A model generated the notes under the pieces. That model worked only from the letters and a program-made list of their open reading frames with translations. It did no database searches and was not told the origin of the DNA. Source: an uncultured Candidatus Saccharibacteria bacterium (GTDB lineage Bacteria > Patescibacteriota > WWE3 > 2-01-FULL-39-13). From it: DNA of 64,000 nucleotides. Positions within the stretch are counted from its first letter, which is position 1, and every line of letters starts with the position of its first letter. The position numbers were made by a program, and so were the translations under genes. The DNA lies in the NCBI GenBank assembly GCA_964370865.1, contig CAYJKF010000001.1:111766-175765 (forward strand). The letters are read 5' to 3'. Below are positions 4,471 to 60,880 of this stretch, piece by piece.

Positions 4471-4471
4471 T

Positions 4472-5927: not shown

Positions 5928-5939
5928 AGAAATTTTATT

Positions 5940-11438: not shown

Positions 11439-11457
11439 TGTTGTAAAATAAGTTAAA

Positions 11458-29217: not shown

Positions 29218-29291
29218 GGCGCGATAGCCAAGTGGTAAGGCAGGAGTCTGCAAAACTCCCACCGCCGGTTCGAGTCCGGCTCGCGCCTCCA
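29218..29291 (+). tRNA. tRNA-Cys (anticodon GCA), CCA encoded
   Basis: Acceptor GGCGCGA/TCGCGCC. Anticodon arm GGAGT-CTGCAAA-ACTCC (GCA). T-arm GCCGG-TTCGAGT-CCGGC. Discriminator T, CCA. Confidence 0.75.
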
Positions 29292-32829: not shown

Positions 32830-34074
32830 ATGGAGAATCCTGCCAATGAGCAATTAAACACCCAAGAAGTCAACAATTCAGAATTCGCACAGAAAGAGCC
32901 ACTTGTTTATAAAAAAACTATAAAAAAATATGCAATGATCGCGGTGAGTGGCTTATTAGGACTGGCCATAATAATTACTGCTGTCGTTATCTATATGCGT
33001 TTTATGGATAGATTTAATGTGACGGAACCAACTCCACCGGTGACACCAACACCAACTCCTGAAATACCAAAAGCAGCATCGCCATTAATCGCCTATATTA
33101 AAAATGATAAATCAATTTGGATTGTAAACACTGATGGAACTGATAAAAAAGTATTGCTCGAACTGCCTGGATCATCGGATCAGTTCTTCTCGGATCTGAC
33201 TTGGAAAAGCAAAGGGTTTCTATCTTATTCACTCTGTGACACAAATCCAAATTGTACTGTGGAGACTTATAATTTAGAGACAAAGTCTTCTGTAACAGAA
33301 ATTAATAATTCAGAAGAAGGATTTGTGGAGTCATTAACTTGGGCACCTGAAAATAAATTCATCGGGTATTTTCAATACAAAGACCAAGGATCTCAGAACC
33401 AAACGGTGGAACTAAGACTTAAGACTGGAACAACCAATACTGTTTTATCAACACATAAAACAGAAATAAAAGATATCGAACAAGTCTCAAAAGTAACTTT
33501 CTCAGAAGACGAGGATCATATAGCCTTTGGTTTTGTAGAATTAGTTGCTTCAACAAGAGGCCGGACTATTACATATACAGCAAAACCTAAAATCTTAGTA
33601 TATAGAGTAAGCGGAGTATTGTTGGATACAATCAGCGATGCCAAAGACCCGATGTTCATAGACGAAAAAACCATCGCATATCAAAAGGGAGCACAGCTCA
33701 TACATAGGGAAATTGGGACATTATCAGAAACAGCTATTACTCCAATAACAGGATTCAACTTAGATGTTTCTCCTGACAAAAGTAAGTATGCATATTGGAG
33801 CCCTACAGGTGGATTCTCAGATGCTTTATTAATTATTTTTGATGGAAACCTAAACCTTCAAAGGAATATATTAAGAGGCGTCCTATTTCCACAGTGGATA
33901 AGCAACTCTACCGTTGTTGGGATAAAAGCTGATAACTGTTTAGGTTCAAAATGTGAATTATTCGATTATCAAACCATTAGTTTAGCTACCGTTAACATCG
34001 AAACAAAACAAGCAAATCCAATTGATCAAGGTCGCACTATTAAAGATGTTGAAGTAAATTACTATGCCAATTAA
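32830..34074 (+). CDS. membrane-anchored hypothetical protein with Pro/Thr linker and beta-rich extracytoplasmic domain
   Basis: 414 aa. TM helix IAVSGLLGLAIIITAVVIYM, linker TEPTPPVTPTPTPEIP, then a repetitive beta-strand-like domain. The stop overlaps the next gene's start by 11 nt. Confidence 0.4.
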   Translation: MENPANEQLNTQEVNNSEFAQKEPLVYKKTIKKYAMIAVSGLLGLAIIITAVVIYMRFMDRFNVTEPTPPVTPTPTPEIPKAASPLIAYIKNDKSIWIVNTDGTDKKVLLELPGSSDQFFSDLTWKSKGFLSYSLCDTNPNCTVETYNLETKSSVTEINNSEEGFVESLTWAPENKFIGYFQYKDQGSQNQTVELRLKTGTTNTVLSTHKTEIKDIEQVSKVTFSEDEDHIAFGFVELVASTRGRTITYTAKPKILVYRVSGVLLDTISDAKDPMFIDEKTIAYQKGAQLIHREIGTLSETAITPITGFNLDVSPDKSKYAYWSPTGGFSDALLIIFDGNLNLQRNILRGVLFPQWISNSTVVGIKADNCLGSKCELFDYQTISLATVNIETKQANPIDQGRTIKDVEVNYYAN

Positions 34075-35746
34075 AGAAGAATCACTAGAGGCCAATGCAG
34101 GTCAAAAACACCCAGTCCCACAGAACGTCATGGATGTTGAGTTTAAAGTTGTAGGAGATTTAACATTAAGGCAAGTCATGTATATTGCATTTGGGGGAGT
34201 TACAGCATACTTTTTATATAAAACAGGTTTACCAAATTTCTGGAAATATATACTAATGGGAATAAGTTTGATTACCGGAACGACAGTTGCTTTTGTTCCA
34301 ATTCAGGAACGCGGGCTTGATAAATGGTTAGTTATATTTATTAATTCAATCGTGAATCCGACCCAAATGATATGGAGAAAGTCTGTTAATTATGCCTCTG
34401 TATCCTTTTTATCAAACTACGACCAACTTCAAATAATAAAAAACGAAATGGTCTCACTTACACCTATTAAGAATCGTAACCGACTAGAAGAATATTTGGG
34501 TATGATTGAAAACACTCAAGATTCTAATTATGACCAATTCGAGATAACCCGAATGGGAGAAATCCAAAATAACCTAAGCGCTAAATCAAACGTTAGTGTC
34601 ACAACTCGCTTTGAAGAAACTCCAACTCTAGAACCTGTAATTCCGACTATTGATAAAGCCAGAATTCCAGAGAGAACACATGAAATAATTGACGTAGAAA
34701 AGAATCCAAAAATAGCTTCTCTTCCACACCAAAATACCATTGCTGAAGACGAGCTGGAGAGTAAGAAGGAGTTATTAAATGCCCTAGCAAACATCGAGGG
34801 AGGGTATAATAAAGATGGGCCAATCGAAATCTTTACTGAACAAAAGGTTAACAGACCTATTCTAAATCTACCTGAGCTTGGATCCAATAACTTCTCCTTG
34901 AAGGGTGAAATTAAATTAAAGAATATACGTAAATTCCCAACGGTAATCGTTGCCGAAGATATAAAAGGCATAAAAGAGCACGAAGAATCTCTAGAAAAAA
35001 AAGTATCAGAATTATTAATACTCGCAAAAAAAGCTAGAGCACAGTATCAAATTAAAAGTGGAAAAGAACCTAGTTTTAATACACCTATTGTTGAGGACGT
35101 TAAAGGCAGGGTTACGCAGTTAAGAGAGGAAAAGAAAAAACTTAAATTGGAAATTGATAAAAGCACAGAACAAGTAAATCTTATAGATAATACAAACAAA
35201 AACAGAGAAACACTTCAAAACCAAATTCAGATGTTAACACATAAAAATGAGGAACTTGAAACCATACTAAAGAAAATTAACTTAGAACTTGATGAACTGA
35301 AAGGAACACCAGAATACAAGGCTTCCAAGCAAAAAGAACCTGTAGAAAAGGTTGAAACTGAAGAAACTAAAACTGAAGAAGTGTTTACACCTGAAAAACC
35401 AATTACCCCAAAACCAATCGACAACCAGGTCGATGAGTTTAAATTCAAAGCAAGGCCATCCGTCAATAGTTCGTATCAAAACACTAATATTATCGAAGGA
35501 CTTGTAAAAGACATCTCTGGTAAACTAGTAGAAGGAGCAGCGGTTATTATTAAAGACTCACAGGGAAATGTTATTAGAGCCCTAAAAACTAACCAAGTCG
35601 GACAGTTCAGAACGCAGACTTCTGTACCAAATGGCAAATATACAATTGAAGTACTAAAAGGTGGCATGAGTTTTGATATTATAATAGTTGAAGCCGTTGG
35701 AAGGCATCTGAATCCAATTTACTTAGTAGCCAAGGAGTTAAATTAA
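34064..35746 (+). CDS. PrgI/VirB3-like two-helix membrane module fused to long coiled-coil domain
   Basis: The N-terminus DLTLRQVMYIAFGGVTAYFLY plus a second helix ILMGISLITGTTVAFVPI resembles the PrgI family of Gram-positive T4SS. It is followed by ~350 aa of K/E/L heptad-rich sequence. It lies directly upstream of the VirB4-like ORFs. Confidence 0.45.
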   Translation: MPIKEESLEANAGQKHPVPQNVMDVEFKVVGDLTLRQVMYIAFGGVTAYFLYKTGLPNFWKYILMGISLITGTTVAFVPIQERGLDKWLVIFINSIVNPTQMIWRKSVNYASVSFLSNYDQLQIIKNEMVSLTPIKNRNRLEEYLGMIENTQDSNYDQFEITRMGEIQNNLSAKSNVSVTTRFEETPTLEPVIPTIDKARIPERTHEIIDVEKNPKIASLPHQNTIAEDELESKKELLNALANIEGGYNKDGPIEIFTEQKVNRPILNLPELGSNNFSLKGEIKLKNIRKFPTVIVAEDIKGIKEHEESLEKKVSELLILAKKARAQYQIKSGKEPSFNTPIVEDVKGRVTQLREEKKKLKLEIDKSTEQVNLIDNTNKNRETLQNQIQMLTHKNEELETILKKINLELDELKGTPEYKASKQKEPVEKVETEETKTEEVFTPEKPITPKPIDNQVDEFKFKARPSVNSSYQNTNIIEGLVKDISGKLVEGAAVIIKDSQGNVIRALKTNQVGQFRTQTSVPNGKYTIEVLKGGMSFDIIIVEAVGRHLNPIYLVAKELN

Positions 35747-36442
35747 ATGAATAACAATATCAAAACTACGACACAAGGTCACCTTGACATAGCAGATATA
35801 AAAAATAATATTGTAATCTTAACAAACGGAGGAGCCTGCGCAATTATAGAAACCAATGCAATTAATTTTGATTTATTATCCCTACCCGAACAAGATGCAG
35901 CGATTTCATCCTTTAGTGCGTTGCTCAATTCCCTAACTTTTCCAATGCAGATTACAATTAGATCAAAAAAAATGGACATAAGCGAGTATTTAGAAAGGAT
36001 TAAAGAAGTTGAAGATAAACAAACAAACCCCAAGATCAGAGGACAAATAATGGCATACAGAACGTTCATCAAAGACGAACTTGTTACAAAAGAGGAAGTT
36101 TTAGATAAAAATTTTTACGTCACTATTCCATACAAAACAGTTTCTCTTGGTTCAATTTCACCTATGACTTGGATAAATGACTTAATGAATTTAGATACAA
36201 AAAACAAAAGTAAAATAAATGTCGAATCCATATTACAAGAAGCTACTCCAGATCTAGCCCCGAAAATTTCGTTTATACTTAAAGAATTCTCGAGGATGGG
36301 AATAAAAGCAAGACAATTAGGAACTGGCGAATTGATTAAACTTTTCTATGATTTATATAATAGTGAGAGTGCTCAGAGCCAGAAAATGAGGACCAATATG
36401 GCAGACTTCTCGTCTGTATTAGTTGAGCCAAAATTAGGATAA
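35747..36442 (+). CDS. VirB4/PrgJ-like conjugation ATPase, N-terminal domain (separate ORF)
   Basis: 231 aa. HLDIADIKNNIVILTNGGACAIIETNAINFDLLSLPEQDAAISSFSALLNSLTFPMQI matches the N-terminal domain pattern of Gram-positive VirB4 homologs. It ends at TAA 36440-36442, 4 nt before the next ORF, which is in a different frame. Confidence 0.55.
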   Translation: MNNNIKTTTQGHLDIADIKNNIVILTNGGACAIIETNAINFDLLSLPEQDAAISSFSALLNSLTFPMQITIRSKKMDISEYLERIKEVEDKQTNPKIRGQIMAYRTFIKDELVTKEEVLDKNFYVTIPYKTVSLGSISPMTWINDLMNLDTKNKSKINVESILQEATPDLAPKISFILKEFSRMGIKARQLGTGELIKLFYDLYNSESAQSQKMRTNMADFSSVLVEPKLG

Positions 36443-36446
36443 AAAT

Positions 36447-38561
36447 ATGTTAGGAATATTTGGGAAGAAAAAACAAGAGAAACCAAAAACTAATATTCCA
36501 AGCGATATGGAACAACCCGAAAATGTATCGAAAGCACTCTTAAAGGGAATTCCAGGGGTAAAAGATATAATCGCACCAAGCGCAATTGAAGTTGATTATA
36601 ATCATATAAAAATTGGAGATAAATATTTCAGAACCCTATTCATTTCTGCATACCCAAGATTCTTAGGCGCAAACTGGCTAGAACCAATAATAAACTTCAA
36701 TCATACAATGAGCATTTCAATGTTTTATTATCCAGTAAATGCGAGAAATGTTTTAGATGATATGAGAAGAAAAATCGCAGAAATGGAAGCCTCCATAAAC
36801 ATTGCGCGCGACAAAGGTAAAGTTGTAGATCCTGGAATTCAAGTGGCTCTGGAAGATGCGAAATCGCTACAGGAACAACTAGTAAAAGGGATTGAAAGAT
36901 TTTTTCACTATTCGTTCTATGTAACGTTTTCAGCCGATTCCTTAGAGGAACTAAAGGACGTATCTTATCAAGTTGAATCAACATTAGGGTCAATGGGACT
37001 GATGTCGAAAAAAGCTTCCCTTGATATGGAAAATGCTTTTAAAAGCACCCTTCCTCTTTGTTTAGATAAACTAAAAATAATTCGAAACATGGATACTACT
37101 TCCGTGGCTACAACCTTTCCGTTTACATCCAGCGATTTAACGGCGAATGAAGGAATTTTATATGGTGTAAATAAACATAACAGATCATTGGTTATTTTTG
37201 ATCGATTTAGTCTTGAGAACTACAACACTGTAGTCTTTGCCAAATCAGGTTCTGGTAAATCATATCTAGTGAAACTTGAAGCACTGAGATATTTGCTATT
37301 TGGCGTGGATATTATCGCCATAGATCCCGAAACTGAATACAGAAGATTATGCGAAGCTGTTGGGGGAGACTATATAGACTTCAATATAAAAAGTCAATCT
37401 AAGATAAATCCTTTTGAATTACCAGTTGTCACTGATACAGAAGATCAGTTAAGTCTTAAAATTTTAAGCCTTCATGCTCTTTTTAAAATTATGTTAGGAG
37501 CACTCTCCCCTGCAGAATCATCTATTCTGGATAGAGCCTTGGTAGATGTATATAGACTAAAAGGCATTACACAGGATGCTGCCACACAGAAAAATGAGCC
37601 TCCTCTAATGGAAGATTTATATAAAGTTCTACTTGCCATGGATGAACCAGAGTCTAAAGCTATTTCCGAGAGACTCGAAAGATTTATAAAGGGCTCCTTA
37701 GCAGGTGTATTTGATCAACGTTCAAATATCAATTTAGATAATAACTTCACTGCATTTTCGATTCGAAACCTTGAGGATGTATTAAGGCCAATCGCAATGT
37801 TTATGATTTTGGATTTTATTTGGACAAAGGTTAAATATGATCTCAAAAAACGTATATTAATTTTGGATGAGGCCTGGACGTTAATGCAATATCCTGATTC
37901 GGCTGCATATGTTTATTCATTAGCGAAAAGAGCCCGAAAATATTTCTTAGGATTAACAACTATTACTCAAGATGTTGCCGACTTCTTAGGTTCAGATTAT
38001 GGAAAAGCTGTTTTAAATAACTCCTCAATTCAAATACTACTAAAACAACATCCAGCCGCAATCGATAAAGTTGCTGAAGTCTTTTACTTGTCAGCAGGAG
38101 AAAGAAATTTCTTGCTTTCAGCAGGTGTTGGCGAGGGATTATTCTTTGCTGGAACCAACCACGTGGCAATTCAATTCAAGGCTTCGAAACAAGAACATTT
38201 GTTAATTACTACAAATCCTCAGGAAGTTGCGAAAATCGATGCTGATAAAAGCTTTAATGATTCACTAAAAACCGTAGATGAAAAAAACCAAACTAATGCT
38301 CCTCAGCAAGTGGGGATAGCTAATAAATATCAAATTATTGAACAGATTCCGCAACAAACACCAGTAGAAACCAATAGTGAAGTTATTGATCCTTTCGATA
38401 AAATTAGTCCCGTCTCAACTTCAGATGAGACTAAACCTATAAGCAATGCCGGCATTACTCCAATGCCAAATCCCTACTCTGGAATAACTGGAGATGACAG
38501 TGAAAATTATAAATCTGGAACAATTATTCTAAACGAAAGAAATTCAAGACCTACGGCGTAA
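36447..38561 (+). CDS. VirB4/PrgJ-like conjugation ATPase, ATPase body (Walker A/B) with C-terminal low-complexity tail
   Basis: IKIGDKYFRTLFISAYPRFLGANWLEPIINF (VirB4 mid-region), Walker A FAKSGSGKSY, Walker B RILILDEAW, then a ~100-aa Pro/Thr/Asn-rich tail. AGGA ribosome-binding site 7 nt upstream of the ATG. Confidence 0.7.
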   Translation: MLGIFGKKKQEKPKTNIPSDMEQPENVSKALLKGIPGVKDIIAPSAIEVDYNHIKIGDKYFRTLFISAYPRFLGANWLEPIINFNHTMSISMFYYPVNARNVLDDMRRKIAEMEASINIARDKGKVVDPGIQVALEDAKSLQEQLVKGIERFFHYSFYVTFSADSLEELKDVSYQVESTLGSMGLMSKKASLDMENAFKSTLPLCLDKLKIIRNMDTTSVATTFPFTSSDLTANEGILYGVNKHNRSLVIFDRFSLENYNTVVFAKSGSGKSYLVKLEALRYLLFGVDIIAIDPETEYRRLCEAVGGDYIDFNIKSQSKINPFELPVVTDTEDQLSLKILSLHALFKIMLGALSPAESSILDRALVDVYRLKGITQDAATQKNEPPLMEDLYKVLLAMDEPESKAISERLERFIKGSLAGVFDQRSNINLDNNFTAFSIRNLEDVLRPIAMFMILDFIWTKVKYDLKKRILILDEAWTLMQYPDSAAYVYSLAKRARKYFLGLTTITQDVADFLGSDYGKAVLNNSSIQILLKQHPAAIDKVAEVFYLSAGERNFLLSAGVGEGLFFAGTNHVAIQFKASKQEHLLITTNPQEVAKIDADKSFNDSLKTVDEKNQTNAPQQVGIANKYQIIEQIPQQTPVETNSEVIDPFDKISPVSTSDETKPISNAGITPMPNPYSGITGDDSENYKSGTIILNERNSRPTA

Positions 38562-39047: not shown

Positions 39048-39407
39048 CTATAATACCTGATTTGAAACTTCTTGGGATTCGATTGAAACAATTCCTTTTA
39101 GTGCTTTGAGGGCTTTTTCAATTTGTTCGTATTTGAGGTTGGTATTTCCTGTAAGTAAATCTACGTATATAAAGGAATGCTCTGGCCAAGTATGCAAAAC
39201 CAAACTAGACTCCGATAAAATGTATACTAAAGTTTCTCCTTGAATGGGATAAGCATAGTAGCATTTTTCAACAACACTTAATTGCGCTTCTTTTGAGATA
39301 GTATCGGCTAATAAATATAAGGCTTCCTTTGAATATTTATATTCCGAAGAAGTAGTGATTTTTATGACCGAATGATCAATTTTGATGTGTGTAGATGCTT
39401 TTTCCAT
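39048..39407 (-). CDS. speH: S-adenosylmethionine decarboxylase proenzyme (SpeH-type, pyruvoyl)
   Basis: ESSLVLHTWPEHSFIYVDLLTGN matches the class-1 AdoMetDC core (ES|S processing site, HTWPE). The start is set at MEKASTHIKID. The ORF-track start at 39503 would overlap the upstream gene by 128 nt. Confidence 0.65.
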   Translation of the reverse strand: MEKASTHIKIDHSVIKITTSSEYKYSKEALYLLADTISKEAQLSVVEKCYYAYPIQGETLVYILSESSLVLHTWPEHSFIYVDLLTGNTNLKYEQIEKALKALKGIVSIESQEVSNQVL

Positions 39408-40359
39408 TATATTGTCCTTTGACGAGTGGTTCTGTAGACGGAGTAACGTCGCAAACGTACAAATTACTTGAAGATCCAATACTTTCGGCTCCTTTATATA
39501 CATTAAACCTGTCGAGTGAATATCTTATCATAAGCCCACTGTCGGTTACAACCTTCTGGATTTTGAGGAATTTCTCCCTAGAAAGCTCACTATTACCGTA
39601 ACAGAAATAAATTCTTGAGGCTTTGTTATGAAAATCTAGTGCCTGAATTGCCCGGGAAAGAAATATCTTTATTCCCTCTTCTGTATAAGGTGGATCGGTA
39701 AAAACCACATCGAACTGACTTTTCAAATCTGTAGGAAAATTATCTTTAACGTCTCCTTTTATGATTTTAATTGGTAAGTTGAAACCAGCGGCATGTGTTT
39801 TTATAGAATTAATAACAAGATCATCTATTTCAAACACGCTAACTTGCTCGGCTTCATTCAATATACTTACAGCAACCGAAGTATAATCATCATCCCCAAG
39901 AAATAAAACTCGTTTACCCGACAAATCAAAATTCTTACTCATGTATAAAGCTCGTTTAGTAATAGTTTCGGAAGTTGCGGCAAATTGGTCGAACTCTCTT
40001 TTATCATGGACTTGAGACTTTTCCCTAATATCCTTTATTGTGTTATAGAGCTCTGTACTTTCAACATTTTCAATCTTTACGGACTGTCGGTTATCGGATA
40101 ATGTGGCTAAACTTTGCGCGACTTTTTTACCGTATTCGCTCAGCATAGTTTGAGGAACGATCTTCTCGAACATAGGACTTAATTCTTTTTTGATTAAAGT
40201 TAGACTTTGCAAAGATACGCCAGTTGATTGGATTACTTCTTTATTAACTAGACTACCTTGTTTAAAAAGCAGCACGAATAACTCCACAAGCTGGGAAAAA
40301 GGAATCCCAGATTTTTTAGAAAATCCTAATAAATCGGCGTTTACAAGTGGTTTTGCCAT
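39376..40359 (-). CDS. DUF43/BpsA-like aminopropyltransferase (polyamine biosynthesis)
   Basis: 327 aa. The FLGDDDYTSVAV (GDDD motif) and FTDPPYT segments resemble the DUF43 branched-polyamine synthase family. Its 3' end overlaps speH by ~32 nt. Confidence 0.5.
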   Translation of the reverse strand: MAKPLVNADLLGFSKKSGIPFSQLVELFVLLFKQGSLVNKEVIQSTGVSLQSLTLIKKELSPMFEKIVPQTMLSEYGKKVAQSLATLSDNRQSVKIENVESTELYNTIKDIREKSQVHDKREFDQFAATSETITKRALYMSKNFDLSGKRVLFLGDDDYTSVAVSILNEAEQVSVFEIDDLVINSIKTHAAGFNLPIKIIKGDVKDNFPTDLKSQFDVVFTDPPYTEEGIKIFLSRAIQALDFHNKASRIYFCYGNSELSREKFLKIQKVVTDSGLMIRYSLDRFNVYKGAESIGSSSNLYVCDVTPSTEPLVKGQYNGKSIYTHQN

Positions 40360-42233: not shown

Positions 42234-43019
42234 ATGGAAACCGATGATTGGAACATCAAGGTAGATCGAATTAAGAAAAAAATAATTGAGGCAGGAAATA
42301 TCGGATTACAACATTTTAGAAACCATCCAATAAACGCAATTGAGAAAACTACTTTCTATGAAATTGTCACTGAACAAGATATAGAAATGGAAGACATTAT
42401 AAAAAAAGAAATCTTAAAGAATTTTCCAAGTGCATTTATATTAGCCGAAGAATCTCCGACCTAAGTCGAAGGAAATTTTTGGACAGTCGATCCCCTAGAT
42501 GGCACGAGCTATTACCAAAGAGGATTATCAGACTGGTCTGTTAATGTGGCTTATATAAAAAACAAAGACGTCGTTTTAGCCATAACATACTGCCCAGTTA
42601 CTAAAGAGTTATTTTATTCTGAAAAAGGAAAAGGTGCTTATCTTAACGGAAAAAGAATTCATGTGTCTGATACTACTGAAATGAAAAAAGGATGCTTCTT
42701 CTTTGGATATAATTACCTTCGAAAGTTTAATAATTCTAAATCAATTAAATTTAGGTCTGGATTTCGTACCATCTGGAGTACAGGGTCAACTGCATTAGCA
42801 TTAGCAAACTTGGCAGCTGGAAGAGTTGATGTCGGAATTCAAATCAACCAATCTTTTTGGGATATAACTGGAATGCTTCATGTTACAGAAGCCGGAGGTC
42901 GCTTTACGAATTGGAAAAATGGGAAAAAATTCGAATACTCCGCTTCGCAGATAAACAATTTCTGTGCGACAAATGGAAAGCTCCATCCCTTAGTCATGGA
43001 TTCACTCGCGGAAAAATAA
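42234..43019 (+). pseudogene. inositol-monophosphatase-family (SuhB/CysQ-like) gene interrupted by one in-frame TAA
   Basis: ORFs 42234..42464 and 42546..43019 are in the same frame. Together they read ...ILAEESPT*VEGNFWTVDPLDGTSYY...SFWDITGMLHVTEAGG, with the IMPase motifs (EE metal site, WxVDPLDGT, WD..G...EAGG) on both sides of the TAA at 42462-42464. No other stop intervenes. Confidence 0.6.
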
Positions 43020-43967: not shown

Positions 43968-44044
43968 TGGTGGGCGGACATGGACTCGAACCATGAACCT
44001 CCAAGGTATAAGCTTGATGCTCTAACCAGTTGAGCTATCCGCCC
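43968..44044 (-). tRNA. tRNA with anticodon UAU (tRNA-Ile reading AUA), CCA encoded
   Basis: Reverse complement folds as acceptor GGGCGGA/TCCGCCC, D-arm GCTC-AACTGGTTA-GAGC, anticodon arm TCAAG-CTTATAC-CTTGG (U33, TAT, A37), T-arm CATGG-TTCGAGT-CCATG, discriminator A, CCA. Confidence 0.65.
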
Positions 44045-44182: not shown

Positions 44183-45268
44183 CTACTCATCAATAGATGT
44201 AACAAATCGAGTTTTCCCTTCTTTGCTCTGGATAGTAATGGCACGGCTTTGCATAGAATCTAGAACCTGATTTATCCCAACATAGTTATCATATCTGGCT
44301 CCCGCCCAATCAGAAATATAATCCCAAGAAGTCGAACCAGGTTTTTTATAAATCGATGCAATCCCCAATTTTGGAAGATCGGTAATACTCTTTGAATAAA
44401 TTGCGTCGGATTTTAGATTTTGAATATTTCCTTCTGAAAATTCTTTCATCTGGTCTGAAAAAACCTTGGAATTAGATATTATTAAAAATTTAGAATCATC
44501 CATTGAAGCCGTGATAATTGTGTAGGCAGCGTATTTATTTTTAGGGTTCTCTTTATACTTATTAAAAGTAGCCACCCTATCGTTTACAAATTGTTCATCT
44601 TTATACTTAAGAACGATTCCCCATCTATCAAAATTATTATCAGGAAAGAGAAAAGCAAACTCTTTATCGAAGTAAACATCAAAATCGTCGTCGGAAATAT
44701 CAAAGTCTTTTTTTATCTCTTCCAACATTTGATCATGTCCTAAAATATTTTTAAGGAAATGCCTAAAATCAAAAAGCTCTGCGAGAACATTTATGTCAGC
44801 TCCGGCAAAATTGGCATAAGCTACTGTTTCAAAGTTACCTTCTTTCAAATCCATTTCTAAATCGATACTTCTTTCATCACCGACTATTTGAACTAGATTT
44901 AAATCTTCAGTGTTTAAGGCAGAATTAAGTGAAGGTTTTTTTAAATCATCTTTAACAGGAGTCATATACGAACGACCCATATAGAAAAAGTAGTAAGCAC
45001 CGAGTGCAGCAGTGGTCGCAAATAATAAAAATAAGAATATCGGAATTAGGAATTTTAATTTTTTGCGGGAAGATACACGATTGTCTTGGGGTTTATTTGT
45101 AATTAAATCAACATTCGAACCAACCATTTGTTCAAAGATGGATTTAACCTCTGTTTTAGGACTACCATCTAAATCATCTCGTTTCTCTAAATATCCGCAA
45201 TTATGACAAAAATCAGTCTTTTTAATGGCTTTACAACTAGGGCAATAATCGTGTACTCCAATTTCCAT
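44183..45268 (-). CDS. zinc-ribbon / TM-anchored hypothetical protein
   Basis: 361 aa. N-terminal CPSCKAIKKTDFCHNCGY (C4 zinc ribbon), TM helix IPIFLFLLFATTAALGAYYFFY, and a large extracytoplasmic domain. Confidence 0.4.
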   Translation of the reverse strand: MEIGVHDYCPSCKAIKKTDFCHNCGYLEKRDDLDGSPKTEVKSIFEQMVGSNVDLITNKPQDNRVSSRKKLKFLIPIFLFLLFATTAALGAYYFFYMGRSYMTPVKDDLKKPSLNSALNTEDLNLVQIVGDERSIDLEMDLKEGNFETVAYANFAGADINVLAELFDFRHFLKNILGHDQMLEEIKKDFDISDDDFDVYFDKEFAFLFPDNNFDRWGIVLKYKDEQFVNDRVATFNKYKENPKNKYAAYTIITASMDDSKFLIISNSKVFSDQMKEFSEGNIQNLKSDAIYSKSITDLPKLGIASIYKKPGSTSWDYISDWAGARYDNYVGINQVLDSMQSRAITIQSKEGKTRFVTSIDE

Positions 45269-45313
45269 ACCTGTATTCTTTATTAATAGGTGTAAAGTGT
45301 CAACCTTAGTGAG

Positions 45314-47563
45314 TTAGTACCTAGATCTCCCGCCCCCACGTGAAAATCCTCCACGACCGCCATTATCTCTTCGGCTTCCACCAAATCTGTTTCCGCCACC
45401 TCGATCAAAGCTTGGTCTAGGTTCTGGTTCAACATATCCTTCTGGTTTTTCTAATAAAGCCTTTCGTGATAGTGAAATTTTTCCATTATCTAGTGACTTA
45501 ACTTTTGTGGTTATTTTGTCACCTAGATTTACGTATTCACTAATATCATTGATAAAATCATAAGAATATTCAGAAACATGAAGTAAACCTTCTTGTTTTG
45601 GAGCGAGTTCAATAAACGCACCATAAGGTTCAATTCTTGTAACAACACCTTCATATGTTTCACCGACTTCTATTTCGATAGTCATTCGCTCAACCATATC
45701 TACGGCTGCTGCTAATTTTTCTGGATCGTTAGACATTATTGAAACGACTCCACCTTCGGGAACTTCATCGACATCTACCTGTGCTCCAGTTGCTTCCATG
45801 ATTCCTCGAATAGTTGCTCCACCACTTCCAATAATCATACCTATTTGATCTTTTTCAATCATAATTGTAACGATTCTTGGTACGGTCTTACCCAACTCTG
45901 CCCTTGGTGTAGAGATAACAGATTCCATAACATCCAAGACCTGCATTCTAGCGGTTCTGGATACTTCGAATAATTTATCGAATATACCAAGAGGCAAACC
46001 TTGGAGTTTTAATTCTAATTGAATTGCAGTCATACCTTCTCTTGTTCCTGTTAATTTGAAATCCATATAACCTGCAAAATCCTCAATACCCATAATGTCA
46101 GTCAGCAATTTGTAATCTTCTAGGGATAAATTTTCTTTATCCTTATCAACAAAAAGACCAACGCCAATACCTGCTACATGTGATTTAATTGGTACGCCTG
46201 CATCCATTAATGCTAATGAAGATCCGCATGTTGATGCCATTGAGGTAGAACCATTTGAGGATAGTATTTCTGAGACAACCCTAATAGTATAAGGAAAATC
46301 CTTTTCGTCTGGCAGAACGGCTATGAGAGCCTTCTCAGCCAACATTCCATGTCCAATCTCTCGTCTGTTTGTATTACCTACTCTTCCTACTTCACCTGTC
46401 GAGTACGGAGGAAAATTATAATGATGCATGTAACCTTTTTTAGATTCGCCATACATACTTTGTGTGTAGTGTTTTTCACTTGCAGAACTTAACGTAACAA
46501 TGGATAATGCTTGAGTTAATCCTCTGCTGAATAATCCTGATCCATGAACCTGAGGTAATACAGCAACCTCTGCTGAAAGCTCTCGGATTTGATTATCAGG
46601 TCGTCCATCAATTCGGCTATTTTTAACCATCACTACATTTCTGACCCAATCTTTTTGAACTTCGTTAATTATTATTCCGATTTGTTTTTCGGAAAATTTA
46701 TCTTCGTATTTTGGTCCAACTTCTTTTGCAATTCCATTTAAAGTTCTGTTCCATTCTCTATCTTTATAAGTTAATCCATTTGCCAACATTTCATCAATCT
46801 TTGCAAACGTAACTTCTTTAAATTCAGCTATGGCGTCTTTACTCAACCAATTCTTTTCGTACTTTCTTATTGGAACATTTAGTTTGGAAATAAATTCATT
46901 AACTAAATCGAAAAGTGGTTTAACTTCTTCTCCTCCTTGTTTGATAGCGGCAACAACTTCTGCTTCTGGAATTATATGGGCATGAGCTTCTAGGGCTTGG
47001 ACTTTGCTTCCATTCTCTAAGTAAGAAACTACTAAATCCATTGCTGATTCTGGATGACCTTCTGATAAATCATATCTTGTTTCACCATTAACCTTAGAAA
47101 TTCGAAGTGGCAAAATAGGTCCTTTAAAAGGAATCCCACTTATCCCAAGTGCTGAAGTAACTCCCAAAAATCCTGCAAATAATGGATCATTAACACCATC
47201 TATCGAAAGAACTGTAATAACTATTTGAGTATCATCTGCATAATCTTTTGGAAATAACGGCCTAATTGCATGATCAATTAAACGTCCGTTTACAATTGCT
47301 CCATCATTTGGTCGACCTTCTCTTCTTGTATATCTTGAACCACCAAGTTTTCCCCCGGCATAAAATCTTTCTTCGTAATCAATCTTTAAAGGTAATCCAT
47401 CAGTTATTTCTACTGTTGGTTGTGAAACAACAGTTACCAAGACAGTTGTTTCACCGACAGTCGTTAAGACTGCAGCATCTGCCTGCTCAGCTAATTTACC
47501 AATTTCCAACTTAATACTTTGACCCTTAAAAGAGCCTTCCTGCTTTATTATTTTTTTATTCAT
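45314..47563 (-). CDS. pnp: polyribonucleotide nucleotidyltransferase (PNPase)
   Basis: 749 aa. Two RNase PH-like cores, KH and S1 (GETYEGVVTRIEPYGAFIEL) domains, and a C-terminal RGG-rich tail. Confidence 0.9.
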   Translation of the reverse strand: MNKKIIKQEGSFKGQSIKLEIGKLAEQADAAVLTTVGETTVLVTVVSQPTVEITDGLPLKIDYEERFYAGGKLGGSRYTRREGRPNDGAIVNGRLIDHAIRPLFPKDYADDTQIVITVLSIDGVNDPLFAGFLGVTSALGISGIPFKGPILPLRISKVNGETRYDLSEGHPESAMDLVVSYLENGSKVQALEAHAHIIPEAEVVAAIKQGGEEVKPLFDLVNEFISKLNVPIRKYEKNWLSKDAIAEFKEVTFAKIDEMLANGLTYKDREWNRTLNGIAKEVGPKYEDKFSEKQIGIIINEVQKDWVRNVVMVKNSRIDGRPDNQIRELSAEVAVLPQVHGSGLFSRGLTQALSIVTLSSASEKHYTQSMYGESKKGYMHHYNFPPYSTGEVGRVGNTNRREIGHGMLAEKALIAVLPDEKDFPYTIRVVSEILSSNGSTSMASTCGSSLALMDAGVPIKSHVAGIGVGLFVDKDKENLSLEDYKLLTDIMGIEDFAGYMDFKLTGTREGMTAIQLELKLQGLPLGIFDKLFEVSRTARMQVLDVMESVISTPRAELGKTVPRIVTIMIEKDQIGMIIGSGGATIRGIMEATGAQVDVDEVPEGGVVSIMSNDPEKLAAAVDMVERMTIEIEVGETYEGVVTRIEPYGAFIELAPKQEGLLHVSEYSYDFINDISEYVNLGDKITTKVKSLDNGKISLSRKALLEKPEGYVEPEPRPSFDRGGGNRFGGSRRDNGGRGGFSRGGGRSRY

Positions 47564-47658
47564 TTATTTTTTTTGAGATTATGGATGGAAGATTCGTAAT
47601 CGAGTATCTAACGAAAATTTTAATCAGATATCCAACTACGAAATAATCCCCTGTCCCG

Positions 47659-47928
47659 TTATCCCTTAATCTTCAACTTTTCAACTAAACTAGTATAAAC
47701 TGTATATTGTTTTGTCTTTAGGTAATTCAATAATTTTCTCCTTTTGCTGACTAATTGCAAGAGTCCTCTTCTTGAATGGAAGTCCTTTTTGTGTACCTTT
47801 AAATGGTCTGATAATGAGTTAATCCTCTCTGTTAATAAGGCGATTTGAACATCGCAAGAACCAGTATCGTTTCCGCCTCTTTGAAATTTCTTTATTACTT
47901 TTGTTTTTGTATCTTTTTTGAGCGCCAT
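47659..47928 (-). CDS. rpsO: 30S ribosomal protein S15
   Basis: 89 aa. [35 protein letters not shown] is canonical S15. Confidence 0.85.
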
Positions 47929-47974
47929 AATTACTGCTATATATTAACAGAACGAATTTATATTATCAAACTGG

Positions 47975-48694
47975 TTATTCCTTAAGTTTAGAGCTTTCAG
48001 ATGCCGATTGCTCTACGCTGACATCATCTCCCATCTCTGAGATAAAATGCTTTTGTAATCCATATAATAGCACGGTGGAGATTTGTGCACTTGGCGTATA
48101 TTTCCAATCTGCAAACTTTCTCAGTACGAGGCTTATGATTGAATCGGACTCGCTATATACATAATTAATACTTCCATATTTTTTGTTATTTTCATTCACA
48201 TCTAGATTGATAATTTCAGCAGAATCAAAGTCCGCTTTGTTTTTTTGATAGAAATCCCCTAATCCTTGTAAATCAGCAATACCGAGGGTGAAGATTAAAT
48301 CTACGTCTTCCCCTACTTCTTCCATTATAATTTTGGCTTTATCGAAATTTCTATTAATCTCTTTAAGTTCTAGAACTAGCTTTGTGTCATCGACTTTTTC
48401 CCATCCGACTGCACTTATTCCAGAATCAGAATAGTCAATTGTAATTTTAAGGCTTTTTGTTGCAAAAGAATCTTTTATTTCGACAATATCAAAAAAACTA
48501 GATTCGATTTCGGAAATATCTCCTGTGTAAACCAAACTAGCCTTTTTTGAAAATTTCTCAGACATAAAGAGTGCCATAGCAACTCCTGCATTAAAGGACT
48601 GTTTATCAGATGATGTACAAATCGCGATGTTTTTTGCTTCGGTTATTAGTTTTGATATTGTATCTAAACTGTTATTTTTCATAATATCTTCCAT
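47975..48694 (-). CDS. hypothetical protein in the nrnA/truB slot (possibly degenerate DHH-family)
   Basis: 239 aa. It sits where rbfA, nrnA or truB usually lie in the nusA-infB...rpsO-pnp operon. There is a weak resemblance to the NrnA N-terminal region but no DHH histidines. Confidence 0.3.
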   Translation of the reverse strand: MEDIMKNNSLDTISKLITEAKNIAICTSSDKQSFNAGVAMALFMSEKFSKKASLVYTGDISEIESSFFDIVEIKDSFATKSLKITIDYSDSGISAVGWEKVDDTKLVLELKEINRNFDKAKIIMEEVGEDVDLIFTLGIADLQGLGDFYQKNKADFDSAEIINLDVNENNKKYGSINYVYSESDSIISLVLRKFADWKYTPSAQISTVLLYGLQKHFISEMGDDVSVEQSASESSKLKE

Positions 48695-48996
48695 ATCTTC
48701 TGTCGGCAGTAATTAAATTTATATCGGCAGGAAATGTGAAATCCGATAAATGTATCAAAGATAGGCGGGGATGTCAAGGAGGGGACACAAAAGAGCCTAT
48801 GAATGGGCTCTTCGATATGGATATATTTTATGTTAGGCTTATTGTATGGAAAGACAGCACCAACTAATTTTTCTGTTGATATTAGCAGCTTTGTCGATTT
48901 CGCTTCTTCTTTTTATCCAAACTACGCAAGAAGCCGTGGATGTCGCTCCAGAATTAATGGCTAAGTAAACGCAATCTTAATAAATAAGAATTAGTT

Positions 48997-50481
48997 CTAA
49001 AGAATTTTCACAGTATCCTCGAGTTGTATGTCTGGAATCTCTGGTTTAAATAGTAATCCGCATTCATCACCTTTACCTGCGGTCTCTTTTTCACCTTTGC
49101 CAATATGAATACTTCTAATTCTAGCTACGTACAATGGAGTATCCATATCTTCCCTGAAGATTCCAACTCTGTTATTTACTTTAAATCTACCTGCTTCTAC
49201 AAGAGTTCCCGCAACAACCATTCCGGATTTTGGTAAGACAAATTTATCAATCACAATACCTTTACCTTTTATTTTCGATTCTTCAATTTCTAAAACGCCT
49301 TCTAGCGCTCCCTCAATCTCTTCGATTAATTTATATATAATCTCATGCTCACGAATAATAACTTTATTGGATTCTGCAATCTTAGCGATACTTCCAGGAG
49401 CGGAAACTTTGAAAGCAATTATTATTGCTTTTGCTGTAGACGCTAATAATACATCTGATTCTTTTACATCTCCAGTTCCAGCAAGTATGACTTCTGGTCT
49501 CGCATCATCTACGATGACTTTCAATAGTGATTGCTCAATTGCTTCTTGAGTACCTACTGTATCAGCTCGAATTATTAGGTTTAGCTTTTTATCTTTATTG
49601 GTATCGACTTGCTGTACTGTTTCCGATGACGTGCCAGATACTTCTTCTTGCTCGGGGGATTCTCCTTTACGATAAATAATATCTCCAACGTGGGGAACAT
49701 CTGAAATTCCCATTAATTCTCCGGCTTCTCCAGTTAAGATTTCTTTAATTGATTTTTGATTCCAAGAAGACATTGATTTTACCTTGCCTACAATCCCCGA
49801 AACGACAATTTCATCGCCTAATTTGAGAATTCCCTTTTTTACAATAACACTTACTAAAACACCTCTTCGATTATCTCTTTTTGATTCTATGATAATTGCT
49901 TCTAACCGGTCAGAAACATCTGTCTTGTACTTATCCGCTTCCATTTCGGCAGTGAGGTTTATGACCTCCAATAACTGATCGAGATTTGTTTTCTGTGTTG
50001 CCGATACGTCCACCGCTACGATATCTCCTCCAAAGCCTTCTACCATAATGCCGTTTTCACCTAATTGTTTCTTAACCCTCATGGGATCGGCAGTAGGTAA
50101 ATCAATTTTGTTTATAGCAACTATAATTGGCACATTAGCAGCCTTCGCGTGCATAATCGCCTCTTTTGTTTGTGGTTTAACTCCATCATTGGCCGCAACA
50201 ACTAAAATTACAATATCTGCGGCGGCACCACCTCGAGATCTCATTTGAGTGAAAGCTTCATGTCCTGGGGTGTCTATAAAGGTTATTTTCTTTCCGTTGG
50301 TTTCTATTGTGTAGGCTCCAATATGCTGAGTAATTCCTCCTGATTCGCCTTTAACAACATTAGAATTTCTTATAGCATCGAGAATCGATGTTTTACCGTG
50401 ATCGACGTGACCCATTATAGTTACTACCGGTGGCCGATATGTATTCGATTTAGTTGCGACAGTCTTTTTCGCCTTTGGCAT
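48997..50481 (-). CDS. infB: translation initiation factor IF-2 (minimal form lacking N-terminal domains)
   Basis: 494 aa. The G domain starts at residue ~20 (VTIMGHVDHGKTSILD, DTPGHEAF, NKID), followed by domain II and the C1/C2 domains. Confidence 0.85.
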   Translation of the reverse strand: MPKAKKTVATKSNTYRPPVVTIMGHVDHGKTSILDAIRNSNVVKGESGGITQHIGAYTIETNGKKITFIDTPGHEAFTQMRSRGGAAADIVILVVAANDGVKPQTKEAIMHAKAANVPIIVAINKIDLPTADPMRVKKQLGENGIMVEGFGGDIVAVDVSATQKTNLDQLLEVINLTAEMEADKYKTDVSDRLEAIIIESKRDNRRGVLVSVIVKKGILKLGDEIVVSGIVGKVKSMSSWNQKSIKEILTGEAGELMGISDVPHVGDIIYRKGESPEQEEVSGTSSETVQQVDTNKDKKLNLIIRADTVGTQEAIEQSLLKVIVDDARPEVILAGTGDVKESDVLLASTAKAIIIAFKVSAPGSIAKIAESNKVIIREHEIIYKLIEEIEGALEGVLEIEESKIKGKGIVIDKFVLPKSGMVVAGTLVEAGRFKVNNRVGIFREDMDTPLYVARIRSIHIGKGEKETAGKGDECGLLFKPEIPDIQLEDTVKIL

Positions 50482-50523
50482 TTATCCCCCTCCTATACTA
50501 AGTACACTCAACGATGTTGCGAT

Positions 50524-51552
50524 TTATGCTGTTTCTTCTGGGCTTTCGCTTTGTTTAGCTTCTTCTGCTGGCCCTGAGTCTGGTTTATCTTCTGCTTTTT
50601 GAGGAGCTTCACCGTCTATATTTATTTTCCAACCAGTTAATTTTGCGGCTAACCTTACATTTTGTCCGTTATTTCCAATTGCTAATGACAATTGATCTTC
50701 AGATACTTTTACTTTGGCTGATTTAGTTTCTTCATCCACAATAACGTCAATTACGTGTGCCGGTTGAAGAGATGTTGCAATAAATTTATCGATGCTTCGA
50801 CTATGATTTACGATATCTATTTTTTCTCCATTTAATTCGTCTGTTACTGCCTGGACTCTAACTCCACGTTGTCCAATACATGCTCCAGATGGATCAACTT
50901 TGTCGTCAGAAGAAGAAACGGCAATCTTTGTTCGTTCGCCAGCTTCTCTTGCGATGCTTTCAATTTTTACAATTCCAGACATCATCTCAGGCACTTCTTG
51001 TCTGAATAATTCTTCTATAAACTTTGGATCGGATCTTGAAAGAATAATGTTTGACGCTCCTGTTATATCATTCTTTTTAACCTCTTTTATCAAGACTTTC
51101 ATTTTTAAATTCATTGAATATCTCTCGGATGGTATTTGTTCTGACACAGGAAGGATTCCTTGGGTTTTTCCAATATCCATAATTGCAGTCTCTTTATCTA
51201 ATCTGAAAATATAACCCATTACAATTGTATCGATTAATTTCTTATATTCGGCAGCTATTGATTCTTTTTCAGCCTCCCTTATTTTTTGTAAGATAACCTG
51301 TTTTGCGGTTTGTGAAGCAATACGGCCAAAACCAGGGGGAGTTACATCTTTTCCATCAAGAAGGATTTTAATTTCTCCACTCTCATCATCAATGCTGGCA
51401 ACTAGTTTTTCAGCTTCCTGTTCGGAAACCTCTACATCTTTTTGATATGCCGCCACTAAAGCCTCTCTCAAGGTTTCTAAAACGTCATCTACTGATATGT
51501 TCCTTTCACTTGCAACCTGATTGATTGCTGCTGTAAATTCTGATATTGCCAT
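50524..51552 (-). CDS. nusA: transcription termination/antitermination factor NusA
   Basis: N-terminal domain, S1 and KH regions (IIDVIVDEE, LAIGNNGQNVRLAAKLTGWKI). The start is set at MAISEF (51552). An ORF-track start at 51597 is possible. Confidence 0.85.
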   Translation of the reverse strand: MAISEFTAAINQVASERNISVDDVLETLREALVAAYQKDVEVSEQEAEKLVASIDDESGEIKILLDGKDVTPPGFGRIASQTAKQVILQKIREAEKESIAAEYKKLIDTIVMGYIFRLDKETAIMDIGKTQGILPVSEQIPSERYSMNLKMKVLIKEVKKNDITGASNIILSRSDPKFIEELFRQEVPEMMSGIVKIESIAREAGERTKIAVSSSDDKVDPSGACIGQRGVRVQAVTDELNGEKIDIVNHSRSIDKFIATSLQPAHVIDVIVDEETKSAKVKVSEDQLSLAIGNNGQNVRLAAKLTGWKINIDGEAPQKAEDKPDSGPAEEAKQSESPEETA

Positions 51553-51687
51553 GTTTTTTTCAACTAATATTAATAAAAAAGGTGAGCCAAAACCCACCCA
51601 TTACACAAATTTCTAACGCTTATAAGTTACCAGAAATCAACATCTTTTGCAAAGGACAAATAAAGAAGTAAAATACCTAGTAGAAAC

Positions 51688-59402: not shown

Positions 59403-59888
59403 ATGAAACATAACCACCTAGCAATCTGGATACTAGTTTTAGCTCTGCAAGTTTATTCTTTACTTTGGTACTCCGCACCGATGTTTGGGGGGCAATGGGC
59501 AAGACTCCAAGGCAAAGAAACCGTTGTGAATGTTTCAACCGACCCATTTCCATATATTGTTAATATTTTAGCTACGGTTATTCTTGCTTACATAACCTCT
59601 GTACTCATAAATAAATTTAGTTTATTTAATGTAGCCAAATCTGCACTAGTTGGTTTTTTAATTTCTATTGGATTTGTATTACCTACACTTTTTAGCCGCT
59701 ATGCATTTATGCAATTAAACTTTTTAATTGCATTAATAGATGCAGGAGTTGTTTCATCGGTAGTTGTAATATCCTTTGTAGTTCTTTCGTTATTTAGAAG
59801 CAAGGAAACAACAGTCAAGGCCGACTCGATAGAAGAGAGCTTACCAGAAGAACCAGCGGATGAAGTTACGGTCGTAGAGGATCTTTAA
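59403..59888 (+). CDS. hypothetical four-TM membrane protein
   Basis: 161 aa with four hydrophobic helices and an acidic C-terminal tail. Confidence 0.4.
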   Translation: MKHNHLAIWILVLALQVYSLLWYSAPMFGGQWARLQGKETVVNVSTDPFPYIVNILATVILAYITSVLINKFSLFNVAKSALVGFLISIGFVLPTLFSRYAFMQLNFLIALIDAGVVSSVVVISFVVLSLFRSKETTVKADSIEESLPEEPADEVTVVEDL

Positions 59889-60880
59889 ATATCCAAGAGT
59901 TTCATTGCCGTTTTAACTTCATGTAAAGTTTCTGAAGCAATTTCTCTTGCCCGGTTAGTTCCAAATTTTAGAATATCCATTAACAAAGATTGATCCTCAT
60001 AAAGTTTTCTACTTTCTCTTATTGGGTCAAGAAAAGAATTAACCGCAATCACTAATTTTTGTTTAACTTCGATATCTCCAACTTCACCTTTTACATATCT
60101 ATTTTTTAGGTCTTCAACTTCTGATTTATTTGGATTAAAAATATCGTGGTAAATAAAAACGGGATTACCTTCGACTTTTCCTGGATCAGTTGCCCTAATT
60201 CTATTTGGATCTGTGTACATCGACATTATTTTCGTTTTAACCATCTCTGAATCATCATCAAGATAAATAGCGTTATTAGAGGATTTTCCCATTTTAGAAC
60301 TATTATCTAAACCAATAAGTCTTGCGGTCTCTCCCACTTTTGCTTCTGGAACTGGAAACACCTCCCCATAAACAGAATTAAATTTGCGAACGATTTCTCT
60401 TGTTTGTTCTATATGAGGTAATTGGTCTTCACCCACGGGCACAAGATTTGCTTTAAAAATTGTTATGTCTGCGGCCTGTGAAACTGGATACATGAAAAAC
60501 CCAAGTGGCACACCTTCATTAAACTTTTGTTTCTCTTTTATTTCATCCTTAACAGTAGGATTTCTTTCGAGCCGAGCAGTTGTTACTAAATTTGCATAAA
60601 AAATAGTTAGCTCTGCAATTTGTGGAATTGCAGACTGTAATAGGAAAGTAACCTTCTTTGGATCCAATCCTACTGCTAAATTATCTTGCAAAACTTGTAA
60701 TGTATTTTTTGAAACTTTTTCTGGATCGTCAAAATTATCAGTCAAAGCCTGAACATCTGCAATCATAATAAATGTTTCATAGTCGTCTTGAAGCCGCACT
60801 CTATTTGCAAGTGTTCCAACATAATGACCAAGATGTAGATGACCAGTAGGACGATCACCCGTTAAAATTCGTTTCTTCAT
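59885..60880 (-). CDS. trpS: tryptophan--tRNA ligase
   Basis: 331 aa. N-terminal ILTGDRPTGHLHLGHYVG (HIGH-type) and KMGKSSNN (KMSKS) in TrpRS arrangement. Confidence 0.85.
   Translation of the reverse strand: MKKRILTGDRPTGHLHLGHYVGTLANRVRLQDDYETFIMIADVQALTDNFDDPEKVSKNTLQVLQDNLAVGLDPKKVTFLLQSAIPQIAELTIFYANLVTTARLERNPTVKDEIKEKQKFNEGVPLGFFMYPVSQAADITIFKANLVPVGEDQLPHIEQTREIVRKFNSVYGEVFPVPEAKVGETARLIGLDNSSKMGKSSNNAIYLDDDSEMVKTKIMSMYTDPNRIRATDPGKVEGNPVFIYHDIFNPNKSEVEDLKNRYVKGEVGDIEVKQKLVIAVNSFLDPIRESRKLYEDQSLLMDILKFGTNRAREIASETLHEVKTAMKLLDI

Follow-up and report, generated by a model that had tools for sequence, protein, structure and literature searches.

How does a bacterium read the isoleucine codon AUA when the anticodon UAU is written directly into one of its tRNA genes? 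The question is raised by a stretch of 64,000 nucleotides (hereafter the window) from contig CAYJKF010000001.1 of a WWE3-like bacterium of the Patescibacteria, or candidate phyla radiation (CPR). Canonically, AUA is read as Ile by tRNA-Ile2(CAU) together with TilS, which makes lysidine, or by the ava2C variant of this system (PMC11938285). The window tRNA shares Ile-type acceptor features with tRNA-Ile2(CAU) (G3/A3:C70/U70, C4:G69), but its position 34 is encoded as T rather than C, so that no TilS step is possible or needed. The window contains a functional chromosomal gene for a tRNA-Ile with the anticodon UAU, and it is highly probable that this is a genuine tRNA-Ile that reads AUA as Ile. 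The fuller statement, in which the tRNA is charged by isoleucyl-tRNA synthetase (IleRS) and reads AUA with no need for lysidine, is one that we regard as probable.

ARAGORN finds four tRNAs in the window, one of them a tRNA-Ile with the anticodon (tat) and exactly the boundaries and strand listed in Table 1. Infernal gives an end-to-end match to the Rfam family RF00005 at 43971-44044 (-), with 69.8 bits against a gathering score of 29 (E 3.6e-13) and zero non-canonical pairs flagged. In the RNA sense the gene reads GGGCGGAUAGCUCAACUGGUUAGAGCAUCAAGCUUAUACCUUGGAGGUUCAUGGUUCGAGUCCAUGUCCGCCCACCA. Its acceptor stem (GGGCGGA/UCCGCCC) has 7 bp, the D stem has 4 bp and a loop of 9 nt, the anticodon stem (UCAAG/CUUGG), of 5 bp, closes the 7-nt loop CUUAUAC, the variable loop has 5 nt, and the T arm is GGUUCGAGUCC (CAUGG-UUCGAGU-CCAUG). 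The window copy is intact, and every stem position is paired. An earlier sequence-only reading, which gave no strand, had proposed a genomically encoded UAU in a canonical cloverleaf; the agreement of ARAGORN and Rfam bears this out, and the details that it named (U33, A37, the T loop, the 7-bp acceptor stem and the encoded CCA) are all present. The two outcomes that it had considered fatal, a loop shifted by one and a pseudogene, are both rejected, since the two programs agree on the register and score the gene highly.

Several positions assign the gene to isoleucine. A35-U36 limits the plausible synthetases to IleRS and the methionyl enzyme MetRS, and MetRS requires C34. Position 34 is T, not the C34 of a lysidine substrate, both in the window gene and in every member of the family linked to pnp that is described below. 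The Ile-type features A73, G3:C70, C4:G69, U12:A23 and A37 are all present. According to Silva et al. 2006 (PMC1635315), C4:G69 is frequent in tRNA-Ile, and a gene with G3 or A3 and C70 or T70 cannot be tRNA-Met or tRNA-fMet, both of which have C3:G70. The sequence-only reading had called for a comparison with tRNA-Arg(UCU), and its Ile assignment withstands this comparison. The fetched loci, CPR and phage-like, contain nine tRNA-Arg(UCU) genes, and every one of them has GGAUAGAGC, that is, the ArgRS determinant A20, where the tRNA-Ile(UAU) gene reads GGUUAGAGC; its D-loop is AACUGGUUA (U20, U20a), and position 35 is A rather than C. With A20 and C35 both absent, an origin from tRNA-Arg(UCU) is rejected. 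BLAST searches were uninformative on isotype: against E. coli genomes the best hits were weak, to prophage-type tRNA-Arg, and against phages there were weak partial hits to T4-like genes labeled 'tRNA-Met/Ile', the partial hits as a whole being to tRNA-Met, Ile, Arg and Lys.

The codon itself is in heavy use. Across the 45 open reading frames (ORFs) of the window, AUA accounts for 518 of 19,053 codons (27.2 per 1000, or 31% of the Ile codons), and AUG is below it at 19.5 per 1000. The meaning of AUA was read from the residues that face each codon type of the window pnp gene in an alignment with 119 homologues of its product, polynucleotide phosphorylase (PNPase). The 18 AUA codons of pnp face I in 33%, V in 22% and L in 10% of cases, and Met lies outside the top six residues. 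ATT and ATC codons have the same residue profile as AUA, and ATG faces M in 38%. At the best conserved AUA sites Ile stands in 112, 99 and 77 of the 119 homologues. Because AUA stands opposite I, V and L, not M, and is so frequent, it is read as Ile in this genome, as the sequence-only reading had assumed, and under heavy demand. Reassignment of AUA is rejected by this codon-by-column test.

The same gene is found in relatives. We fetched pnp neighborhoods for homologues at decreasing PNPase identity, so that the family was recognized by synteny and not by a tRNA pattern. The tRNA is identical in the same-species loci L001 and L009-L011. In 7/7 relatives at 56-65% PNPase identity (L012, L013/L014, L015 on the 945-kb record OZ246395.1, L016, which is named WWE3, L017 and L018), a tRNA-Ile(tat) lies 1.2-3.7 kb downstream of pnp, its orientation and distance varying and the intervening ORFs differing from locus to locus. 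Among the seven distinct pnp-linked sequences, compensatory changes occur at 5:68, 50:64 and 51:63: the acceptor pair G5:C68 becomes A5:U68, and the T stem passes from CAUGG/CCAUG to CUAGG/CCUAG and CCUGG/CCAGG. The anticodon stem changes from U27:G43 to U27:A43. All 21 stem pairs stay paired, and the loop CUUAUAC and A73 are invariant. The compensatory changes and the invariant loop show that the gene is functional; gene and loop are conserved under purifying selection across the clade. No tRNA was found near pnp in L019 (WWE3, 45% PNPase identity) or L020 (Woesebacteria, 44%), and the linkage to pnp is therefore clade-specific.

Beyond this clade, JGI (Joint Genome Institute) metagenomes were scanned with a narrow pattern that allowed C or T at position 34 and fixed the D arm and C38. 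The scan returned at least 120 loci; among the matches listed, to which the following counts refer, 116 have UAU and 4 have CAU. They include 98 distinct complete UAU sequences, in which 99.5% of stem positions pair and, of the 21 pairs, 16 vary on both sides, the pattern having fixed four pairs of the D stem. A73, a position that the pattern left unconstrained, is present in 98/98; position 3:70 is G3:C70, A3:U70 or U3:A70 in 98/98 and C3:G70 in 0/98; and C4:G69 occurs in 72/98. Eight loci could be given organism names by exact-sequence look-up of neighboring proteins. The seven bacterial ones are all Patescibacteria (three 'Patescibacteria group', Paceibacterota, a Yanofsky-/Niyogibacteria cluster, Uhrbacteria and WWE3), and the eighth, L139, is an archaeal metagenome-assembled genome (MAG). 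A few AT-rich loci carry tRNA arrays and may be phage. Thus, homologous UAU tRNAs occur across many CPR lineages and are common in that superphylum, where the UAU solution seems to be the rule rather than the exception. The view of the sequence-only reading that such anticodons are rare and confined to a few reduced, AT-rich lineages does not hold for CPR.

Two of these groups of loci have neighbors that concern AUA decoding. In 48 of the 120 matches listed, the tRNA-Ile(UAU) gene lies 3' of ftsH, usually at a distance of 20-800 nt from the ftsH stop codon (for example, L071 with ftsH at 3984-5960 and the tRNA at 5979-6055, and L059 with ftsH at 773-2692 and the tRNA at 2704-2780). Most ftsH-linked loci belong to a Paceibacterota-type group whose acceptor stem begins with CCGCCC or CCACCC. 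Many other bacteria show a linkage between tilS and ftsH (tilS-hpt-ftsH in Firmicutes and Actinobacteria), so both solutions to AUA decoding are found beside ftsH. The archaeal locus L139, 13.5 kb long, carries a tRNA-Ile(UAU) of the same pattern together with an IleRS at 9879-12794 (-); this enzyme, the only IleRS found beside a UAU tRNA, belongs to the archaeal/eukaryote type, has no C-terminal zinc-binding domain of the bacterial kind, and is uninformative for CPR.

How, then, might such a tRNA work? It would be charged by an IleRS that accepts U34, for which Arg or Lys in place of E. coli Trp905 or a type-2 enzyme would be expected, and AUA would be read through a U34-A Watson-Crick pair, for which no lysidine is needed. 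The tRNA-Ile(UAU) would be the main and probably the only AUA decoder, in a lineage that works with neither TilS nor tRNA-Ile2(CAU). Misreading of AUG would be limited by competition from tRNA-Met plus a contribution from the ribosome, from the body or loop of the tRNA, or from a modification of U34; the invariant C32/C38 is a candidate tRNA feature for the rejection of AUG. The claim of the sequence-only reading that the tRNA needs a modified U34 is overstated, as the U34 of Mycoplasma mobile is unmodified and that species relies on its ribosome and IleRS (PMC3575796).

TilS and its substrate were searched for directly. Pfam, NCBIfam and a TilS hidden Markov model (HMM) found no tilS in the window and about 7 kb beyond its right end (about 8% of the genome), and no CAU tRNA of the Ile2 type is present in these approximately 71 kb. 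E. coli TilS, a Margulisbacteria TilS and an HMM of 61 TilS sequences were also run against the 3,037 ORFs that the window and all fetched loci contain together; no TilS was found except in the Margulisbacteria locus L037, and none in the WWE3-like loci. The CPR DNA sampled, about 0.9 Mb, is too little for this absence to be significant, since about one tilS would be expected if the gene were randomly placed. Nor was tilS found upstream of ftsH in 19 CPR loci, which is weak evidence, as a tilS-ftsH linkage is not shown for CPR. The exact CAU version of the anticodon arm has 0 matches in 241 million metagenome records. The CAU tRNAs found in the window species (L142) and its relatives (L015, L018) are the initiator (C1xA72) and an elongator of the Met type (C3:G70). 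The non-UAU tRNA nearest to the window gene in the sample, from L101 (73% identity), has the anticodon CAU and an acceptor stem of the Ile type.

Locus L037 contains one of the four CAU matches listed, a tRNA(CAU) at 10159-10233 whose loop CUCAUAC is the C34 counterpart of the CPR loop and which lies 330 nt upstream of tilS (10566-11939). Because this tRNA has C3:G70 and stands beside tilS, the 2006 'Met-type' rule may not hold in that phylum. A database search with the L037 TilS returned only proteins from Margulisbacteria, WOR-1 and Saganbacteria and was uninformative on CPR.

Because UAU tRNA genes are kept over deep divergence within CPR, in genomes small enough (about 1 Mb) for redundancy to be unlikely, TilS-independent decoding of AUA appears likely for this lineage. 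Several points weigh against it or against the tRNA assignment beneath it. Two identity elements of E. coli IleRS are not kept, A38 being replaced by C38 and C29:G41 by A29:U41. The thermodynamic minimum-free-energy prediction for the sequence alone gives a long rod instead of a cloverleaf; such folds are common for tRNAs, and the point is outweighed because the stems covary, so that the predicted fold was not used as evidence. The tilS and tRNA-Ile2(CAU) genes may lie outside the approximately 71 kb covered. Because the window carries no IleRS, no U34-modification genes and no rRNA, we infer both the charging of the tRNA and the avoidance of AUG. Finally, a tRNA-Ile(TAT) alongside tilS is documented in Lactobacillus casei, L. 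plantarum, Cyanothece PCC 7424 and Ferrimonas (PMC3575796).

The points on coverage and on precedent lead to the most serious alternative, namely that the tRNA-Ile(UAU) is real and functional and a second AUA reader, tRNA-Ile2 with CAU converted to lysidine by a tilS located elsewhere, acts beside it, as has been proposed for the four taxa just named. The covered part of the genome and the non-significant CPR sample leave room for such a pair of genes. However, the L. casei-type cases are sporadic and come from larger genomes, whereas a deep clade with genomes near 1 Mb has conserved the gene described here, and it is strictly kept across WWE3, Paceibacterota and Uhrbacteria; long-term redundancy would be unlikely at this genome size. 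In addition, the metagenome collection contains no CAU twin, and the CAU tRNAs seen in the species and its relatives are of the fMet and Met types only. We therefore consider a redundant decoder possible but rather doubtful.

In another scenario the gene would be an accessory copy, decaying or carried by a mobile element, and not a core translation gene. The site is prone to rearrangement: strand and distance from pnp vary, and the flanking ORFs are lineage-specific. L016 has two tRNA-Ile(tat) copies 1.8 kb apart (13536-13612 and 15440-15516) that bracket NTPase, PIN and nucleotidyltransferase genes; the second is decayed, with the T loop UUUACGU and a mismatch in the anticodon stem, and resembles the scar of an element integrated into a tRNA. 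A conjugation-like VirB4/PrgI cluster lies 5-10 kb from the window gene. Nevertheless, the window copy is intact in sequence and score, each of the relatives examined has an intact one as well, no integrase flanking the tRNA was found in the window gene annotation, and the VirB4/PrgI clusters are ordinary chromosomal genes that occupy the same place in relatives. The decayed copy in L016 suggests that the tRNA-Ile(UAU) serves as an integration site; such use would explain the local rearrangements around the tRNA without the tRNA itself being accessory, and an accessory origin is very unlikely.

The remaining alternative, a tRNA of another isotype (derived from tRNA-Arg(UCU) by C35A or from tRNA-Met or tRNA-Lys) that serves a reassigned AUA, for example as Met as in mitochondria, or acts as a suppressor, could draw on the weak best BLAST hits to tRNA-Arg in E. 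coli genomes and 'tRNA-Met/Ile' in T4-like phages and on the altered code of some CPR classes, which use UGA as Gly, but it is largely refuted by the missing A20 and C35, the Ile/Val/Leu, not Met, positions of AUA in PNPase, the long and contiguous ORFs under table 11, and G3:C70 as an anti-determinant for Met and fMet (PMC1635315), and is barely credible.

Encoded UAU anticodons are known from other bacteria, and M. mobile together with eight other species provides the precedent for a bacterial tRNA-Ile(UAU) without tilS (2013, PMC3575796). The window tRNA resembles the tRNA-Ile2(UAU) of M. mobile (Taniguchi et al. 2013, PMC3575796; PMC1635315) in its encoded UAU and A37, and the two hosts are alike in their small AT-rich genomes, their heavy use of AUA, and the expected Watson-Crick reader of AUA without lysidine. 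Among bacteria, only M. mobile has been studied biochemically in this respect; experiments there cover the lack of both tilS and tRNA-Ile(CAU), a U34 without modification, Arg865 of IleRS and the rejection of AUG by the ribosome, which discriminates against this codon (PMC3575796), whereas our evidence comes from genes and sequence. Furthermore, the UAU of M. mobile is an isolated recent event in Mollicutes, whereas here it is clade-wide, with homologues across many CPR lineages. In Bifidobacterium and Neorickettsia, UAU replaces the lysidine system, as we propose here, in the presence of a eukaryote-type IleRS2 and with no tilS (PMC3575796). These cases are defined by their link to IleRS2, and the window carries no IleRS with which to compare.

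Comparable tRNAs exist outside bacteria as well. Nanoarchaeota and Korarchaeota have a tRNA-Ile(UAU). Archaeal and eukaryotic tRNA-Ile(UAU) likewise read AUA with an encoded UAU, the eukaryotic anticodon being pseudoU-A-pseudoU (PMC3575796); unlike them, the window tRNA is bacterial, has no intron, carries an encoded CCA and has bacterial neighbors. A laboratory parallel is the Bacillus subtilis suppressor of a tilS deletion, tRNA-Ile1 G34U, in which a UAU tRNA-Ile sustains AUA decoding without TilS (PMC3919564). That suppressor is a mutation of tRNA-Ile1(GAU), whereas the window tRNA is natural and may descend from either a GAU or a CAU gene.

Taken singly, the gene is a further case of the known bacterial tRNA-Ile(UAU), and its value lies in the CPR-wide pattern that it indicates. 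A TAT gene had been recorded in 19 species as of 2014 (PMC4013482), bacterial tRNA-Ile(UAU) is still termed a 'rare case', and tilS is considered present in nearly all bacteria (bioRxiv 10.64898/2026.02.03.703510; PMC11947777). We found no paper linking lysidine or tilS with CPR in the literature searched. We tentatively propose, with more doubt than confidence, that an encoded tRNA-Ile(UAU) is the ancestral and near-universal CPR solution to AUA decoding, in a radiation devoid of TilS and tRNA-Ile2(CAU). If so, a large share of bacterial diversity would read AUA without lysidine, with the loop CUUAUAC and with AUG rejected in some other way, such as a ribosomal or IleRS adaptation or a new modification of U34, and the textbook statement on bacterial AUA decoding would need a large exception. 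TilS (TIGR02432) would then be a biased phylogenetic or completeness marker for CPR. How U34 avoids AUG could then be tested on tRNA, IleRS and 16S sequences that co-evolve and number in the thousands, as well as in cultivated Saccharibacteria. If, on the other hand, CPR genomes keep TilS, the tRNA-Ile(UAU) would be no more than an additional isoacceptor that suits a high demand for AUA.

The host is defined by its protein relatives. The window, with a GC content of about 36% and ordinary chromosomal gene content, encodes a PNPase 96% identical to that of the 'Patescibacteria group bacterium' MAG JAUPVU01, and the closest named relatives of this protein in the collection searched are from candidate division WWE3 (56%) and Woesebacteria (44%). 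Assembled contigs of the species reach 571 kb, and the genome is roughly 0.9 Mb. One contig runs beyond the right end of the window to dnaN and dnaA, which places the window near the replication origin. Upstream of the tRNA, a co-oriented gene string from nusA to a 361-aa ORF (44183..51597, -) forms the syntenic anchor (Table 1); the string recurs ahead of the tRNA-Ile(tat) in L012-L018. In the window, the 138 nt that separate this ORF from the tRNA gave no sign of a sigma-70-like promoter. Other window genes encode GroEL, the ribosomal protein L25/TL5, a glycosyltransferase, and polyamine and cell-envelope functions.

Table 1. Positions of the tRNA-Ile(UAU) gene, its parts and selected other features in the window.
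Feature	Position in window	Strand	Basis or remark
tRNA-Ile(UAU) gene, 77 nt with encoded CCA	43968..44044	-	ARAGORN (tat) and Rfam RF00005
Anticodon loop C32-U33-U34-A35-U36-A37-C38	44006..44012	-	direct sequence reading
Anticodon UAU (U34-A35-U36)	44010-44008	-	direct sequence reading
Encoded 3' CCA	43968..43970	-	preceded by discriminator A73 at 43971
nusA	50524-51597	-	NCBIfam/Pfam
infB	48997-50481	-	NCBIfam/Pfam
Hypothetical gene	47975-48694	-	upstream co-oriented string
rpsO	47659-47928	-	NCBIfam/Pfam
pnp	45314-47563	-	NCBIfam/Pfam
Hypothetical gene, 361 aa	44183-45268	-	last ORF before tRNA
ValRS	21412-23631		
Class I W/Y-family synthetase	59885-60880		PF00579; tRNA-synt_1b
PrgI-domain protein, TraC-like protein and VirB4/CD1110-family ATPase	34064-38561		type IV secretion/conjugation-like cluster
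tRNA-Cys	29218-29291		

The interval from tRNA-Cys to tRNA-Ile contains the GroEL, glycosyltransferase and polyamine genes and the VirB4/PrgI cluster. An integrated mobile element bounded by the two tRNAs was considered and rejected, because there is no integrase and relatives keep the VirB4 cluster in place; the PrgI/TraC-like/VirB4 genes are at the same chromosomal position in L009, L013 and L014. Within the same interval, a BpsA-like branched-chain polyamine synthase gene stands beside an S-adenosylmethionine decarboxylase gene and a DUF192 gene (39048-40359, -). This trio is kept in relatives and represents a polyamine pathway within an otherwise very reduced genome. Also in the interval, an inositol-monophosphatase ORF of 157 aa with a GTG start (42546-43019, +) spans only positions 110-264 of the 271 in the Pfam profile, owing either to truncation or to a start that is mis-set, and public gene calls of the species give the same 157-aa call.

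Stop codons in the 45 window ORFs are TAA (30), TAG (13) and TGA (2), and the ORFs are intact under table 11, so the genome does not use the UGA=Gly code of Gracilibacteria and Absconditabacteria. A further unusual anticodon was observed in five of the CPR loci, where a tRNA-Ser has ACU (A34; loop UUACUAA) and the window has the usual GCU: L025 4725-4814, L033 5601-5688 (-), L054 10258-10345, L111 2667-2755 (-) and L116 5948-6035. To our knowledge, A34 outside tRNA-Arg(ACG) is very unusual in bacteria; in tRNA-Ser it would imply inosine or another way of reading AGY.

The 1029-aa ORF at the right end of the window is part of a 1084-aa gene that starts beyond it. Farther on, in L142, tRNA-fMet and elongator tRNA-Met genes (5949-6023 (-) and 6593-6668 (+)) flank a DivIC-like gene, and this region is followed by xerC, dnaN, jag, yidC, yidD and dnaA. 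The anticodon stem of the elongator tRNA-Met has a mismatch, A31.C39, at its bottom in each of the three lineages in which this tRNA was seen (L142; L015, 10977-11052; L018, 21547-21623).

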